42,991 bases of DNA from Escherichia phage hz69, in the sequence record ON556632.1, one strand, 5' to 3'. Under the pieces are notes generated by a model, which ran no database searches, had not been told where the DNA came from, and saw only the letters and a program-made list of their open reading frames with translations. Position 1 is the first letter of the stretch; each line of letters begins with the position of its first letter. Below are positions 172-5,449 of the stretch, piece after piece. The position numbers and the translations under genes are program-made.

Positions 172-401
172 CCGAGTTCCAGTCCCGCGTATTTACGGCA
201 GTCGTTTCATTAACCCGTAAAAAAGGGTCGTGCAGCGTTATGGACTTGCGCCGTAGTTATTTTAGGTACTATAGTTCCGCCATTATTGAAGGGTCGTTGA
301 AGGTACTGGTTAAATCCGGTGTCGTGAAGAATGTTGGCGGGAAATATAGTGCTGTTGCTGAAGTTCGCGGAATGACCGCTACTTTAGAAGACCTGGAATA
401 A
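168..401 (+). CDS. hypothetical protein (77 aa), C-terminal ...TLEDLE tail
   Basis: ORF track; translationally coupled to upstream gene; ends in acidic EDLE motif shared with downstream replication proteins. Confidence 0.5.
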   Translation: MTEFQSRVFTAVVSLTRKKGSCSVMDLRRSYFRYYSSAIIEGSLKVLVKSGVVKNVGGKYSAVAEVRGMTATLEDLE

Positions 402-459
402 AAGAAAGCCCCGACGCGGTGAACGCCGAGGCCAAATTACTTGCTGAAGGAAATACAAC

Positions 460-2718
460 ATGTCCGATGTAATTTTATCCTACTCGTGGTCACGTCGCAA
501 CGCGCGGGCAGAGAAAAAGGATATAAACGTCAGAACCACACACACGGCAACACTGGACGACCTGAAAGAGTTAATTCAGCCGCTCGATGCCGTTCGCGAC
601 GGGATTAACCCGAAGACCGCCCCCGGCTATATCACAGCCGCGTGCGATTCTACGCACAGCACCGTAAAAGACCCTGAAACTGGCGACTTTAAGCAAGCGC
701 GTAAAGGCTTCTTCTACCGCTGTGACGCGTCTGTAAGCAAATCGTCGCTGGCGTACCTGGACTTTGACAGTGCAACCATGGAAGAGTATCAGGAAGCTGT
801 GCGCCTGGTTAAGCGCAGCCGGCGGGCGATGTGCCTCTATACCACGGCATCACACACAGACGAAGCCCCGCGCTTTCGCGTCGTCATGCCGCTGGCCCGA
901 ACGGTTGAGGGCGGTGACATCATTCGTGTTCGTCATGGATTGCTGGAGCACTTCTTCAAAGGCATGGGCGCCGACCGCAGCGGGTTCACTCTTTCGCAGC
1001 CGATGTACTTGCCTCCTGTCGGCGCTACCGTTATCTGGTCGCGCCGCAACGACCTGATTGACCCTGATGAGTTACTGGAAGGCGTCCCAGCCGTTGACAT
1101 CAGCAGCGCATCTGATTACCAGATACCGGAAGAACTGCGCACCGCGTTTACAGATGCGTTTGAAGCACTGGCATTCGAGTACGGCGGCATCATGACGCCG
1201 CGTGGCCTTAAGATGCCAGCTACGCCAGAACACGCAGAAAACTACAGCGACCCGACACCACGCCCGGACGACTTCCTGTTATGTTTCCCGCGCGAGGGAT
1301 ACGAAGCGCCGAACGTAACCATGATTCACGACACCGACATTGCCGCGACCGAAGGAATGCCCCCGAAAGAAGTGTGGAAATACGCGTGTGATGCGACCGG
1401 GCTGCCGTTCAGTGAAGTCGCCGAGGCTATCGGATGGGGTGTGCGTGAATCTGTTTCATGCAGCCTCGACGACCTGGAAGACGATGATGACTCAGAAGAG
1501 GACGAGCTACCTGAACCGGTAAAGGCTGATTTCGTCGTTGAGGGGTACATGCCGTCAGATTGTATCTGGGATATTGTTGGGGAATCCGGCACGTACAAAT
1601 CGTTCTATACGCTGGGGATGATGTACCTGAGCGCCGCCGGATACCGGTTTGCCGGGGCGGATACCCAGCGTTGCCACCATTTCTATATCGACGGTGAGGG
1701 AGGCGCAGCTACACGCACACGTATTGACGCGCTCGCGGCTAAATACGGCGAGGAAGGTAAAGATTACGTACATGTCATTGATATGGGTGAGGTGCTCGCC
1801 GCGCATGGTGATAAAAAAATCCCCGCGCTAATCCGCAGGATGCGTGAAGCTGCAGGGGACGAGCCTATTGGTATGGTCGCGTTCGATACCCTCAACCAGA
1901 CGCTGGCCCTGACAATTGACAAGTTCGACGAGAACAGTTCATCAACTGCAATTGGCATGGGTAAAGTTATCGCCATCCTTAAAAAAGTACGCGACGCAAC
2001 TAAAGCCGCTGTGGGTGTCGTCCACCATACGCCTAAGGGTGGAAAGAAAGCCCGTGGTAGCGGGGCGCTGTATGCCGGTGTTGATGTGGAGCTGACAATT
2101 GAGCGCGCTACCGACCGCCAGATAAACGTATACCACTCGAAATTTAAGCATGGGCCTCAACAGAAAACGGTTGGCATGGTTCTGGAGTCGGTACAGTTCC
2201 GTGAAGCCCCGCCTCCGAAAGAATACCGTGCGGTTGAGTTCCTCGGTAGCACAGAGGAATACGGCACAATCGTAAACCTCGATCTGCCTGAGCCGCACAA
2301 GGCGCTTGTGCTGATGCCGTGGGGCTTCGAGCCGTTCAAAACTGACGAGGAGAAGGAGCGGGAAGAAGGGTTAACTAAAGAAGGTAAAGAAAACGTAAAG
2401 AATGCTGTAAAACGCGGGAAGGATGAAGGGCGTAAGGAATCAATACTCGCCGCGCTGGAAGACCTGCAACAGTCCGACGACACCGGACGAGGTTTTACCC
2501 AACGGCAGATAGTGGCGAACTCGGGGGACCACGCCATCACCAACCACCATCTTGAGAAGATGCTGAAAGACGGTGAGTTGATGCTCGGGTGCGATGTTAA
2601 CGGTGAAGTTATACCAGGCACATACCGGATACCTGAAAAGATGGGGGACAGATTAAGACCGAAGACGATATACGAACCGAATGAGATGCTGGTGGTGACA
2701 GAGGAGGATTTGGAATAG
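460..2718 (+). CDS. bifunctional primase-polymerase / RecA-like (DnaB-like) helicase
   Basis: ATG 460 with RBS GAAGG at 446-450. N-terminal half has PrimPol-like LDFD and SHTDEAPRFRVVMPL motifs; C-terminal half has Walker A GESGTYKS and Walker B VAFDTL. Ends ...EEDLE. Confidence 0.8.
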   Translation: MSDVILSYSWSRRNARAEKKDINVRTTHTATLDDLKELIQPLDAVRDGINPKTAPGYITAACDSTHSTVKDPETGDFKQARKGFFYRCDASVSKSSLAYLDFDSATMEEYQEAVRLVKRSRRAMCLYTTASHTDEAPRFRVVMPLARTVEGGDIIRVRHGLLEHFFKGMGADRSGFTLSQPMYLPPVGATVIWSRRNDLIDPDELLEGVPAVDISSASDYQIPEELRTAFTDAFEALAFEYGGIMTPRGLKMPATPEHAENYSDPTPRPDDFLLCFPREGYEAPNVTMIHDTDIAATEGMPPKEVWKYACDATGLPFSEVAEAIGWGVRESVSCSLDDLEDDDDSEEDELPEPVKADFVVEGYMPSDCIWDIVGESGTYKSFYTLGMMYLSAAGYRFAGADTQRCHHFYIDGEGGAATRTRIDALAAKYGEEGKDYVHVIDMGEVLAAHGDKKIPALIRRMREAAGDEPIGMVAFDTLNQTLALTIDKFDENSSSTAIGMGKVIAILKKVRDATKAAVGVVHHTPKGGKKARGSGALYAGVDVELTIERATDRQINVYHSKFKHGPQQKTVGMVLESVQFREAPPPKEYRAVEFLGSTEEYGTIVNLDLPEPHKALVLMPWGFEPFKTDEEKEREEGLTKEGKENVKNAVKRGKDEGRKESILAALEDLQQSDDTGRGFTQRQIVANSGDHAITNHHLEKMLKDGELMLGCDVNGEVIPGTYRIPEKMGDRLRPKTIYEPNEMLVVTEEDLE

Positions 2719-2748
2719 GTAAAAAGAAAGGGGCGTTAAGCCCCTTCA
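2719..2748 (-). terminator. Rho-independent terminator after XRE gene (hairpin AAGGGGC-GTTAA-GCCCCTT, T-run on - strand)
   Basis: GC stem 2727-2746 followed on the - strand by TTTCTTTTT; sits between the convergent primase and XRE genes. Confidence 0.6.
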
Positions 2749-3913: not shown

Positions 3914-4056
3914 TTTACTGGGCGATATTTACTTACACTAACGGCGTGGCTACAGAGCACAGCCGATACCTGGATGTAGATGACGCATACGCAGCATACG
4001 ATAATCTTGATTTTGATACTTTTGACGATGCTTGGGTGGAGAGGGTAGAAGAATGA
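3910..4056 (+). CDS. hypothetical acidic protein (48 aa)
   Basis: ATGA overlap with upstream stop; translated by hand (MIYWAIFTYTNGVATEHSRYLDVDDAYAAYDNLDFDTFDDAWVERVEE). Confidence 0.4.
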   Translation: MIYWAIFTYTNGVATEHSRYLDVDDAYAAYDNLDFDTFDDAWVERVEE

Positions 4057-4211
4057 CGAACCGTAAAGCGCGACTTATCTTTATTAAACGTCACCAGCCT
4101 TTTCGAGTAAGCAACTCGACTTGGCTGATCATCTTCAACCGTAGCGGCGACACGTGCGCCTATAAACGCAAAACGCGTAAAGTTAAATGGGGCGGGAGTT
4201 TAAGAGCATGA
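4053..4211 (+). CDS. hypothetical basic protein (52 aa)
   Basis: ATGA-coupled small ORF, hand translated; ends overlapping the nuclease start. Confidence 0.35.
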   Translation: MTNRKARLIFIKRHQPFRVSNSTWLIIFNRSGDTCAYKRKTRKVKWGGSLRA

Positions 4212-5449
4212 AACTAAAAGAACGCGGCGGAAATAACGATGTACACGCCTTACTGTCACCGTCGGGAGCTAAAAAGTGGCTAAGCTGCGCGGCGTCACTG
4301 GCCTGTGAAAAAGATATTCCTAACACGTCAGGTAAAGCGGCTGTTACAGGTACTGCGTGCCACACCATAGCTGAGGTACATCTCAACGCTTATATTCGCG
4401 GAACTGCGTTGCCGTTAGAGCGCGAAGTCGGTGCTTATGTGCTGGATGAGGGTAAAGGCCAGATTAAGGCGCTAATCAGCCCGATGAAAGGGGCGGTACT
4501 GATTACGGCCGACATGATTGAGCAGGTGCGCAAGTACACCGACTACAGCAAACCGATTATCGACGTAGCTACTTACGCCAAGCTGGAAATGCGCGTCAAT
4601 CTTACTGAGGTATTGCATCCAGGTTATGAAGGTGTCGAGACGTTCGGAACCGCCGACCTTGTTGCCGTACAGGAACTGGTTAACACCGACGAGCACATGC
4701 TCATTATCGGCGACCTTAAAACAGGACGACATCGTGTTGAAGCGAAAGAAAACAAGCAGCTTATGCTTTACGCTCTCGGTGTTTATCGACGACTCAAGAG
4801 ACGTTATAACATCACAGTTGTTCGTCTGGTTATTTTCCAGCCGTACGCCGGGGGTGCTTCGGAATGGGACATCTCGGTCGAGGGTCTGGAACTGTTCGCT
4901 AAGTTCGCGCAGAAACGAGCTCTGTTGGCGCTTGATGCGTATTTCCGTGGTAAAAAGAACCTGAAAGCGTCGGACTTCAGGCCGTCGGTCGATGGATGTC
5001 AGTGGTGTCGGTTCTCAGAACAATGCGCCTCGCGTACAAAGACGGTTAACGCGGTGCTGGCGGAAGAACTGGAGGACGACTTTGCACTTGAACTGACGCC
5101 AGAGCAACTCGTAGCTGAGTACGAGAAGCTGCCGTTGTTGCGTCAGCACATAGACAAGGTTGAAAAAGCTATGGCTGCCACGTTGCATTCCGGTAAGAAA
5201 GTTCCTGGGTACAAACTGGTTGAAGGCCGCCCTGGTAATCGTGCGTGGAAAGACGCGGAGAAAGTAACAGAACTCTACGGCGACAAGCTGACTAAAGAAG
5301 TGCTCATGACGCCTACCGAAGCCGTTAAAGTCATACCGGAAGAAGAACTGAAAGACTTTATTACCCGTAAGCCCGGCGCACCATGTGTCGCAACGGCAGA
5401 CGACAAACGGCCTGGGTGGAATCAGGTTAGTGAAGAAGATTTAGAATAA
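4208..5449 (+). CDS. PD-(D/E)XK / Cas4-like exonuclease (DUF2800-like)
   Basis: N-terminal HALLSPSGAKKWLSC, GDLKTGRH and QLMLYALG RecB-like motifs, C-terminal CQWC..C cysteine cluster. Alternative ATG at 4187. Ends ...SEEDLE. Confidence 0.75.
   Translation: MKLKERGGNNDVHALLSPSGAKKWLSCAASLACEKDIPNTSGKAAVTGTACHTIAEVHLNAYIRGTALPLEREVGAYVLDEGKGQIKALISPMKGAVLITADMIEQVRKYTDYSKPIIDVATYAKLEMRVNLTEVLHPGYEGVETFGTADLVAVQELVNTDEHMLIIGDLKTGRHRVEAKENKQLMLYALGVYRRLKRRYNITVVRLVIFQPYAGGASEWDISVEGLELFAKFAQKRALLALDAYFRGKKNLKASDFRPSVDGCQWCRFSEQCASRTKTVNAVLAEELEDDFALELTPEQLVAEYEKLPLLRQHIDKVEKAMAATLHSGKKVPGYKLVEGRPGNRAWKDAEKVTELYGDKLTKEVLMTPTEAVKVIPEEELKDFITRKPGAPCVATADDKRPGWNQVSEEDLE

Follow-up and report, generated by a model that had tools for sequence, protein, structure and literature searches.

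The window analysed here, the whole 42,991-nucleotide (43-kb) stretch of Escherichia phage hz69 DNA, is that of a Kagunavirus-like siphophage and contains the adjacent genes listed in Table 1. The order nuclease-SSB-polymerase, with matches to PF10926, PF10991 and PF00476, is that of the duf2800-gp2.5-polA module, so named in PMC8093625. PF10926 covers residues 13-402 of the nuclease, which also matches PF12705, belongs to PHROG 69 ('exonuclease') and gives weak AdnA matches; its cysteines C27, C267 and C273 are invariant and C264 is nearly so. The primase-helicase had been labelled a PrimPol-helicase, of which the helicase half stands (AAA_25) and the PrimPol half is at most putative, AAA_25 being the only Pfam match and PHROGs giving 'replicative helicase-primase'. 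The SSB is annotated as an annealing protein through PHROG 112. Its AlphaFold2 model (pLDDT 84, low confidence at residues 183-210) retrieves 4KLK (7e-10), 5ODL (3e-9) and T7 gp2.5 (1JE5, 5e-6) with Foldseek, and the protein thus resembles the DUF2815/Enc34 ORF6 SSBs (5ODJ, 5ODL, 4JG2 and 4KLK) in both its Pfam family and its structural matches.

Upstream of these genes lies gp2, whose AlphaFold2 model (pLDDT 85, residues 66-77 below 50) matches winged-helix domains in Foldseek, namely the MotA NTD, the LexA DBD, HrcA and RPA32C. The original prediction counted gp2 among the replication proteins, an assignment that we do not uphold: beyond the winged-helix model, the protein falls into PHROG 5169, a family without assigned function, and it is missing from about two thirds of the close relatives, where an unrelated ORF without the tail occupies its place. 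The module can thus do without the tail of gp2.

Table 1. Genes, tails and internal motif copies at the locus (positions are those of the window).
Feature	Position	Strand	Description
gp2, 77 aa	168..401	+	Winged-helix domain, residues 1-62; disordered tail, residues 66-77
gp2 tail, T-A-T-L-E-D-L-E	375-398	+	EDLE at 387-398
Primase-helicase, 752 aa	460..2718	+	C-terminal half AAA_25 helicase; N-terminal half putative primase region
Linker motif, S-L-D-D-L-E-D-D-D-D	1462..1491	+	Internal, directly ahead of the helicase domain
Primase-helicase C-terminal tail, V-T-E-E-D-L-E	2695..2715	+	EDLE at 2704-2715
DUF2800 PD-(D/E)XK nuclease, 413 aa	4208..5449	+	RecB/Cas4-like, 4-Cys cluster; Pfam, PHROG
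Nuclease C-terminal tail, V-S-E-E-D-L-E	5426..5446	+	EDLE at 5435-5446
T7 gp2.5-type SSB/annealing protein	5540..6172	+	DUF2815/Enc34_ssDNA-bd; Pfam PF10991, PHROG 112
SSB tail 'motif 1', A-S-T-D-D-L-E-D-D-E-E-D-E	6101..6139	+	Includes STDDLEDDEEDE at 6104-6139
SSB basic end, APRRERRRRG	6140-6169	+	Directly after motif 1
Family A DNA polymerase	6231..8504	+	Pfam DNA_pol_A PF00476; ends ...EEVYRYAK, no tail

Across all six reading frames, the window has only five sites with the pattern [DE]DLE, each of them inside one of four proteins of the replication region: gp2, the primase-helicase (two copies), the nuclease and the SSB. It forms the C-terminus of gp2, the primase-helicase and the nuclease, and is internal in the primase-helicase linker and the SSB tail. 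The three terminal copies and the SLDDLEDDDD linker had been predicted where we find them; the SSB copy (TDDLEDDEEDE) had likewise been named correctly, in a finding whose range closed at 5449, before the site. Across 69 greedy gene calls, EDLE is the sole C-terminal tetrapeptide common to more than one protein, and none of 20,000 within-protein shuffles produced a terminal tetrapeptide shared by at least three proteins. A coincidence of acidic low-complexity ends, which these shuffles speak against, or a translated DNA signal such as a terminator, promoter or ribosome-binding site could in principle yield such a repeat, and hairpins or promoter-like sites do follow each of the three EDLE-ended genes (407-433, 2727-2747 and 5454-5482). 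These signals lie past the stop codons, however, and the next start codons are 59-91 nucleotides away. Moreover, the three terminal copies are encoded by unlike codons (GAAGACCTGGAA, GAGGATTTGGAA and GAAGATTTAGAA), so EDLE repeats at the level of the protein and not of the DNA. With codons varying among the copies and among relatives and the amino acids fixed, the coincidence or DNA-signal reading, whose likelihood we put at next to nil, is refuted, and we confirm the EDLE observation as genuine, not a product of chance.

Knowing that the absence of the tail from orthologues had been set beforehand as the refutation test, we counted the motif in non-redundant tails of the nuclease (63) and the primase-helicase (47) from loci L001-L084. 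The prediction clearly survived: D-L is present in 61 of the 63 nuclease tails, with the Leu encoded by three codons, and is invariant in the primase-helicase (47/47), with the Leu encoded by six, while the flanks vary in both proteins. The motif is retained at 30-55% identity in Jerseyvirus, Dhillonvirus and Klebsiella 37P2-like phages, the D-L core holding as far down as about 30-45%, and primase-helicases only ~30% identical, from Dhillonvirus and 37P2-like phages, still carry TDDDLKD, SDEDLNS or TDDDLAD. Where gp2 is present, its tail reads T[LP]EDLE (25/25 loci). The two internal copies are as conserved as the terminal tails, the linker pattern C-x-x-x-D-L-x-[DN]-[DE] being kept in all aligned clades of the primase-helicase, and in the SSB D192, L193 and D195 are invariant among 35 homologues and A-[ST]-x-[DN]-D-L is retained in 67. 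The same tail is found on unrelated small proteins (gp2, an ORF at L054 and another at L058), and another lineage bears its own tail on two proteins, one with a Zn finger and one weakly clamp-like. In the AlphaFold2 models of gp2 and the SSB the tails are disordered. We conclude that selection acts on the amino acids of the motif and that unrelated proteins can carry it.

The tail of the nuclease lies beyond the Pfam DUF2800 domain, seven residues past the conserved D-K-R-P-x-W, and most of 150 DUF2800 representatives end in the arrangement DKRP-x6-10-acidic-F/L-acidic; the nuclease EDLE is the local form of a family-wide DDF-E-D-L tail. In the SSB, ASTDDLEDD of the window aligns with AS(E/D)DDFDD(I/L) of distant SSBs, about eight residues past the OB domain. 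The match to the SSB tail motif runs column for column, and the EDLE tails are probably all copies of a single short linear motif, [A/V]-[S/T]-[D/E]-[D/E]-D-L-[E], placed on disordered ends or linkers. EDLE is probably the lineage-specific form of 'motif 1' (DDF-D-D-I/L), which lies in the acidic tail of the T7-type (DUF2815) SSBs. What follows motif 1 differs from the Enc34-type SSBs: the window's SSB has a basic RRERRRR in place of their C-terminal hydrophobic 'motif 2' (...DLI), and the role of this basic end in the window's clade is not accounted for by a docking-peptide model.

Further away, duf2800-gp2.5-polA modules have lineage-specific ends that recur on the nuclease and the SSB of the same module (SLI/SLI, DLA/DLA, DMI/DMI, EFI/EFV, MFV/VFS and DLV/DLV). 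Over the last three residues, 99 of 189 positions were identical between the two proteins, compared with 62.4 +/- 4.1 after permutation; none of 10,000 permutations reached the observed value, on a statistic that ignores shared ancestry. Four tail states occur among members of a single group that share 58-68% identity in the nuclease core. Nuclease and SSB tails of distant lineages thus vary in concert, as a shared receptor predicts. Overall, we give a probability of roughly 0.7 to the reading that the tails are a shared docking peptide recognised by one and the same phage-encoded receptor.

Tail autoinhibition is known from T4 gp32 and T7 gp2.5, and each acidic tail might likewise act in cis only, as a DNA mimic that folds onto the DNA-binding surface of its own protein, without a common partner. 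All four carriers bind or process DNA, acidic tails are frequent on DNA-binding proteins, the tails here are both acidic and disordered, and removal of the Enc34 ORF6 tail alters the discrimination between ssDNA and dsDNA (PMC5686142). We nevertheless regard a purely cis role as unlikely, since four unrelated folds would have no need to share both an invariant [ST]-x-x-D-L core and its flanks, nothing would make the terminal residues of nuclease and SSB co-vary, and unrelated small proteins would not be expected to bear the same tail.

Co-variation also speaks against two further readings. The E. coli SSB ends in the tip DFDDDIPF, and the tails could mimic such a tip, recruiting or blocking SSB clients (chi subunit, PriA, RecQ, ExoI and RecO). 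Motif 1 of distant lineages (DDFDDI) does resemble the host MDFDDDI, and some ends are acidic and hydrophobic (DLI, DLV and EFI). The window's motif, by contrast, lacks an I-P-F end as well as a terminal hydrophobic carboxylate, its Leu is followed by as many as three variable residues, two copies are internal, and the bacterial tip is near-universal, which would leave the lineage-specific co-variation of two phage proteins unexpected; host-tip mimicry is accordingly improbable. Alternatively, the tails might mark the early replication proteins for degradation or turnover by a host protease or by the phage's HslV-like peptidase, and so give them a common lifetime. Three copies are at the C-terminus, the usual place of bacterial degrons, and an HslV-family peptidase is annotated in a close relative. 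Known C-terminal degrons are non-polar (ssrA ...LAA), however, whereas the terminus here is acidic and two conserved copies are internal; the motif is also part of the SSB tail, a well-documented interaction element, with which a host protease tag would not be expected to co-vary. We consider such a tag very improbable. The tails also lack the Q, second L and F of the beta-clamp-binding motif QL[SD]LF or a related pentapeptide.

The closest precedent for the shared docking peptide is phage T7. There, the polymerase receives the gp2.5 tail on its front basic patch (PMC12339929), and the tail is also a competitor of ssDNA at the SSB cleft (Marintcheva 2008, as cited in PMC5686142). The likeness to T7 acidic tails drawn in the original prediction has held: the SSB is structurally of the gp2.5 type, a family A polymerase is encoded in the window, the motif is the form that the SSB-tail motif takes locally, nuclease and SSB tails change together in distant lineages, and the SSB (STDDLED) and the primase-helicase (VTEEDLE at its end and SLDDLED in its linker) share an acidic, disordered motif built around a single key hydrophobic residue. 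The analogy departs from T7 in several respects. While T7 gp2.5 (...DEDGDF) and gp4 (...SNDTDF) end in Phe, the window's tails end in D-L-E without a C-terminal aromatic anchor, a Leu followed by one to three variable residues taking its place; F is used by distant lineages (DDF and EFI/EFV ends). Unlike in T7, two copies of the motif are internal, and a RecB/Cas4-like nuclease and a small winged-helix protein are among the carriers; the T7 gp6 exonuclease has no such tail. Nor is the primase-helicase a homologue of gp4, since it matches AAA_25 but neither TOPRIM nor DnaB. We class the EDLE tails as a probable variant of the T7 acidic-tail principle.

A second precedent comes from crystals. 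The traceable end of Enc34 ORF6 (...T-S-D-A-Y187-D188) enters the ssDNA groove of a neighbouring molecule, and similar tail contacts are reported for 4JG2, 4KLK and T7 gp2.5 (PMC5686142). In Enc34, 4JG2 and 4KLK this docking is a crystal lattice contact and could be non-physiological. The tail motif of the window's SSB aligns with the segment in the neighbour's groove, profile alignment placing L193 opposite Y187 of T-S-D-A-Y-D; in the AlphaFold2 monomer its own tail has a pLDDT of about 50 and no confident placement. The published accounts of DUF2815 SSBs and the duf2800-gp2.5-polA module that we consulted describe a tail for the SSB alone, and in them we found no description of a co-varying peptide on nuclease, primase-helicase and small proteins.

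As to which protein would receive the peptide, the published Enc34 crystal points to the SSB groove, and the biochemistry of T7 points to the polymerase. The SSB itself bears the motif and, with its ssDNA groove, is also a candidate receptor. The polymerase is a second candidate by analogy with T7 gp5; the LEDDDLPDD inside it is a structural element and shows no co-variation with the tails. If the peptide is shared, the SSB groove is a plausible receptor at somewhat below even odds, and the polymerase is a possible but doubtful one, as is a solution involving both or another protein. The shared-docking interpretation of the original prediction, which had proposed polymerase or SSB as partner, is supported; binding itself and the identity of the partner we infer.

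In the mechanism that we propose as the most likely, the motif would have been copied from the SSB tail onto proteins that generate ssDNA or mark it, namely the DUF2800 resection nuclease, the small winged-helix protein and, in two copies, the primase-helicase, so that all carriers would bind the site used by the SSB tail itself. The peptide may act as an ssDNA-like handle in the concave ssDNA-binding groove of the SSB, and the SSB/annealase would stay tethered to the nuclease and the helicase up to the point where nascent ssDNA takes the tail's place, resulting in a hand-off. A basic patch on the family A polymerase may be an additional or alternative docking site for the tails, as it is in T7 for those of gp4 and gp2.5. 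We put forward only tentatively the idea that an ssDNA-mimicking handle pre-loads the gp2.5-type SSB/annealase on every ssDNA-generating enzyme, to be competed off by the nascent strand. Pre-loading would cover the resection nuclease and the helicase and, in other lineages, the clamp-like and Zn-finger proteins.

Two known systems offer partial parallels. As in lambda Exo-Red-beta and RecE-RecT, a resection nuclease would be coupled to an annealing protein loaded on its product. In lambda, the coupling runs through the folded C-terminal domain of Red-beta, whereas here it would use a shared linear peptide, and the proteins are not homologous. As at the bacterial SSB-Ct hub, docking in DNA replication, repair and recombination would rest on a short acidic peptide that has a hydrophobic anchor and sits on a disordered tail. 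The polarity is reversed, many enzymes bearing the peptide here where one SSB tip serves many, and the window's tails lack the I-P-F of D-D-D-I-P-F with its free Phe carboxylate, their terminal residue being E or variable.

If the tentative pre-loading idea is true, the widespread duf2800-gp2.5-polA module would have in these tails a tail-swap code for hand-off in general, and co-evolving tails of each lineage's own could prevent the mixing of replisomes between co-infecting phages.

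The window covers nearly all of the genome of a Kagunavirus-like siphophage (Guernseyvirinae), and Escherichia phage Henuyfy11N is 97% identical to it over the first 9 kb. The region under study, the early module for replication and recombination, is listed below with features of related loci; in it, small ORFs lie between the acidic-protein gene and the nuclease gene, and a SNF2 helicase is encoded further on, past the polymerase. Since promoters or hairpins adjoin their 3' ends, each of the tail-bearing genes seems to end a transcription unit. Sequence comparison indicates that the module is a mosaic: across the related loci L002-L050, the SSB is 96-99% identical to that of five loci only and 61-66% identical to that of most other Kagunavirus loci, and the nucleases flanking the latter are 87-96% identical to that of the window. 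Some relatives (L003, L012, L015, L023, and L043) have a different sequence in place of the N-terminal ~86 residues of the primase-helicase. The polymerase has 727-780 residues in most relatives and 1032-1069 in several (L004, L039, L045-L048, L060, and L062), where similarity to the polymerase of the window stops after about residue 472 and returns at the C-terminus; this pattern suggests an intein or homing-endonuclease insertion in the long genes.

Coordinates of the early module in the window and of selected features in related loci
Locus	Coordinates	Feature	Remark
Window	1-171	HTH protein	
Window	168-401	gp2	ends TATLEDLE
Window	407-433	GC-rich hairpin	3' of gp2
Window	460-2718	primase-helicase	ends VTEEDLE; linker copy SLDDLEDDDD
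Window	2727-2747	GC-rich hairpin	3' of primase-helicase
Window	2736-2951	divergent repressor	minus strand
Window	3016-3044	strong sigma-70-like promoter	TTGACA-17-TATAGT; 5' of acidic-protein gene
Window	3076-3597	acidic protein, function unknown	annotated "13.88 kDa late protein" in relatives
Window	4208-5449	DUF2800 PD-(D/E)XK nuclease	ends SEEDLE
Window	5454-5482	strong sigma-70-like promoter	TTGACT-17-TATAGT; directly 3' of nuclease stop
Window	5540-6172	DUF2815/gp2.5-type SSB	tail carries STDDLEDDEEDE
Window	6140-6169	basic stretch APRRERRRRG	ends SSB after acidic motif
Window	6231-8504	family A polymerase	
L001 (Shigella phage phiSD1)	2836-3273	HslV-family peptidase	close relative; annotated near lysis genes
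L004	12022-15132	long polymerase gene	
L011	11209-11421	70-aa ORF beside nuclease-SSB junction	ends ...CKKEDLE
L054	11587-12351	SSB	expanded acidic/basic end
L059	9947-11416	Dhillonvirus nuclease	extra internal copy
L059	11643-12512	SSB	expanded acidic/basic end
L148	1900-2154	GapR-like (PF10073) protein	directly 3' of SSB
L149	10757-11014	GapR-like (PF10073) protein	directly 3' of SSB
L175	9245-10051	268-aa protein	just past polymerase; ends PVDDLADLV
L184	10740-11048	GapR-like (PF10073) protein	directly 3' of SSB

The original prediction held that the EDLE tails act as a common docking peptide, and all the sequences it claimed on gp2, the primase-helicase (end and linker), the nuclease, and the SSB tail are present. 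A six-frame scan of the 42,991 bases found [DE]DLE at exactly five sites, all of them those predicted, and of all C-terminal 4-mers in the 69 greedy gene calls only EDLE recurs. Shuffling within proteins, done 20,000 times, never produced a terminal 4-mer common to three proteins. The repeat is in the proteins and not in the DNA, nor is it a ribosome-binding site or terminator artefact, since the codons of the three tails differ (GAAGACCTGGAA, GAGGATTTGGAA, and GAAGATTTAGAA) and the next start codons lie 59-91 nt further on. Chance is thus excluded by the statistics, and a DNA-level repeat or regulatory signal by the codons and by the location of such signals 3' of the stop codons. Two further candidate copies were rejected: LEDDDLPDD in the polymerase is a structural element that all lineages conserve and that does not track the L/F state of the tails, and KDEDLAEY sits within a conserved, helix-like part of the "13.88 kDa late protein" and lacks the [ST]-x-x context.

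Absence of the tail from orthologues would have spoken against a docking peptide, yet D-L is kept across the nuclease and primase-helicase orthologues that we located in 74 related loci from IMG/VR. (The first nuclease homology search returned only matches of at least 94% identity; divergence was taken from a cluster-representative search and locus scans.) In the closer set of loci (L001-L084), D-L is invariant in 61/63 non-redundant nuclease tails and 47/47 non-redundant primase-helicase tails, with the consensus [A/V]-[S/T]-[D/E]-[D/E]-D-L-[E/S/K/N], after which the protein ends within 0-2 residues; the residues just upstream are far more variable. Three different Leu codons are in use in the nuclease tails and six in those of the primase-helicase. 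The motif persists at only 30-55% protein identity, as in Dhillonvirus (Gluttony, Pride, and rolling), where the primase-helicase ends TDDDLKD and the nuclease DEDLSNE, and in Klebsiella phages 37P2 and VLCpiS11a (SDEDLNS and DEDLS, respectively). Every clade retains the linker copy of the primase-helicase in the form C-x-x-x-D-L-x-[DN]-[DE], and all 67 SSB homologues found carry A-[ST]-x-[DN]-D-L-[EDSG]-D-[DE], with D192, L193, and D195 invariant (35 homologues). Such a tiny invariant core within variable, disordered sequence looks like a short linear interaction motif. The low-confidence tails of the AF2 models agree with this reading: gp2 is a winged-helix domain with pLDDT >90 for residues 1-62 and <50 for residues 66-77, and the SSB has a confident OB fold with low confidence for residues 183-210. 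That the motif is instead a degron is unlikely, given its acidic chemistry and conserved internal copies. Besides their C-terminal copy, four Dhillonvirus nucleases (L059, L062, L071, and L073) have an extra internal one, TATDEDLGDD, in an insertion at about residues 311-330.

A search with the nuclease against 1.84 billion cluster representatives yielded 11,569 DUF2800 representatives at E <= 0.001, and we inspected the tails of 150 of those listed, at 30-59% identity. In most of these 150, the conserved D-K-R-P of the Pfam domain is followed by 6-10 variable residues and then by an acidic-hydrophobic-acidic element. Nearer relatives have DDDL[A/N/V]D here and more remote ones DDF-E-D-L, and the extreme C-terminus is often formed by a second element, [D/E]-[L/F/M]-[I/V/A]. 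The nuclease tail is left unmodelled, because the Pfam DUF2800 model ends at residue 402 of 413. In the SSB alignment, ASTDDLEDD of the window shares its columns with AS(E/D)DDFDD(I/L) from distant DUF2815 proteins, some eight residues past the FGGGG at the end of the OB domain. Because of these shared columns, EDLE appears to be this lineage's form of "motif 1" of T7-type SSB tails (DDF-D-D-I/L), with L for F, and the nuclease, primase-helicase, and gp2 each appear to carry a copy of it. The SSB matches Pfam PF10991, and its model, which matches 4KLK, 5ODL/5ODJ, 4JG2, and T7 gp2.5, indicates a true T7-type SSB. With the single SSB sequence as query, the PDB gave no match, whereas a profile alignment reached Enc34 ORF6; PDB sequence and NCBIfam searches gave none for the primase-helicase, and NCBIfam none for gp2, the nuclease, or the SSB. 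In Dhillonvirus and Klebsiella-clade SSBs the basic end is expanded by 40-80 residues to alternating acidic/basic repeats such as RRSRDEDDEDEEEERPRRRRR.

Two further scans added about 115 more distant modules, in which the tails of the nuclease and adjacent SSB match each other and differ between lineages. Examples (nuclease and SSB) are NDFENVDAVEAAAEFI and DDFDNIEEGTDAGEFV in L085, NDFENVDETESAESLI and EDFDEITEGADAESLI in L124, DDFSDVTATDCDLA and DDFDDVTSGATADDLA in L127, ...EFSDMI and ...GTADMI in L182, and ...DDMFV and ...ADVFS in L139. Over the last three residues of 63 non-redundant distant pairs, 99/189 positions are identical, compared with 62.4 +/- 4.1 for permuted pairings; 0/10,000 permutations reached this value, in a test that takes no account of phylogeny. 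One group with nuclease cores 58-68% identical has four terminal states, each mirrored in the SSB, and DLA/DLA occurs in two lineages only 46% identical. Such coordinated change, in two proteins that are unrelated, is what a shared, co-evolving receptor would predict, and we regard a common phage-encoded receptor as well supported. Tails acting purely in cis, by autoinhibition, would explain neither the identical core on four unrelated folds nor the co-variation. That the tails mimic the tip of the host SSB is disfavoured: they lack the I-P-F end, and a host pocket that is universal would not cause co-variation specific to each lineage.

The motif is also portable, shifting from one protein to another unrelated one. 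gp2 is found in only 25/74 close loci, an unrelated, tail-less ORF of ~100 aa taking its place elsewhere. Klebsiella-clade phages have a small ORF between SSB and polymerase that ends ATDEDLE and exists in two unrelated versions, of 63 aa (L054) and 68 aa (L058), which are gp2-like in the tail only. The distant locus L175 encodes a DUF3268 zinc-finger protein with the end DDFDVIEDDFKDLL, and the SSB of this lineage ends DDDLV. The 268-aa protein of the same locus, which also bears the tail of its lineage, weakly matches the DNA polymerase III beta central domain (25 bits, under the 27-bit cut-off) and may be a phage sliding clamp using the same docking code. GapR-like proteins are suggestive carriers: they end LDLI, LDLL, and MDLV (L149, L148, and L184), and the final three residues agree in each case with those of the adjacent SSB; we give these matches little weight because there are only three and the residues nearly abut the GapR domain. 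The 70-aa ORF of L011, seen in one relative, may be a small tail carrier or a chance ORF.

The acidic tails of T7 gp2.5 (...DEDGDF) and gp4 (...SNDTDF) have partners in common, and this principle, like the SSB tail itself, is textbook knowledge. In the crystal of Enc34 ORF6, the last 11 residues are invisible and the traceable end inserts in the concave seven-stranded sheet of a neighbouring molecule, the ssDNA-binding face, burying 842 square angstroms, with comparable tail contacts in 4JG2, 4KLK, and T7 gp2.5 (PMC5686142). From the construct boundaries in that paper, the traceable end is ...T-S-D-A-Y187-D188, and our profile alignment places this segment on S-T-D-D-L193-E of the window. The hydrophobic residue of motif 1 would thus be expected to sit in the SSB groove. 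The T7 gp2.5 tail and ssDNA compete for the gp2.5 cleft (Marintcheva 2008, as described in PMC5686142). Based on the Enc34 groove contact, the profile alignment, and the T7 precedent, we favour a model in which EDLE peptides would tether the SSB/annealase, via its groove, to ssDNA-making enzymes and nascent ssDNA would free it in a hand-off; the identity of the receptor and the hand-off step are what we infer. In the AF2 model of the SSB by itself, the tail was not placed with confidence. The polymerase may be an alternative or additional receptor, the T7 gp2.5 tail engaging the front basic patch of its polymerase (PMC12339929). Modules keeping tails without a polymerase would exclude it, and the apparent cases were ORF-calling artefacts on high-GC contigs or truncated loci.

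The duf2800-gp2.5-polA module has been named before (PMC8093625) and is found in very many phages and prophages whose hosts are Gram-negative or Gram-positive bacteria. In the literature searched, we found no account of an SSB-tail motif on the nuclease, primase-helicase, or small adaptor proteins, nor of its co-variation. The motif is general and conserved and can be tested directly: as a co-evolving peptide of ~7 residues on the SSB, nuclease, and primase-helicase, it offers a concrete, cheap, and falsifiable handle on module assembly and would broaden the classic T7 principle of tails to include recombination nucleases and small adaptor proteins. A member of this nuclease family from Dhillonvirus Bas14 is reported as a retron trigger (bioRxiv 10.64898/2026.07.14.737667). 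The tail marks the disordered end of the family that includes it, and could bear on how defence systems sense these phages.
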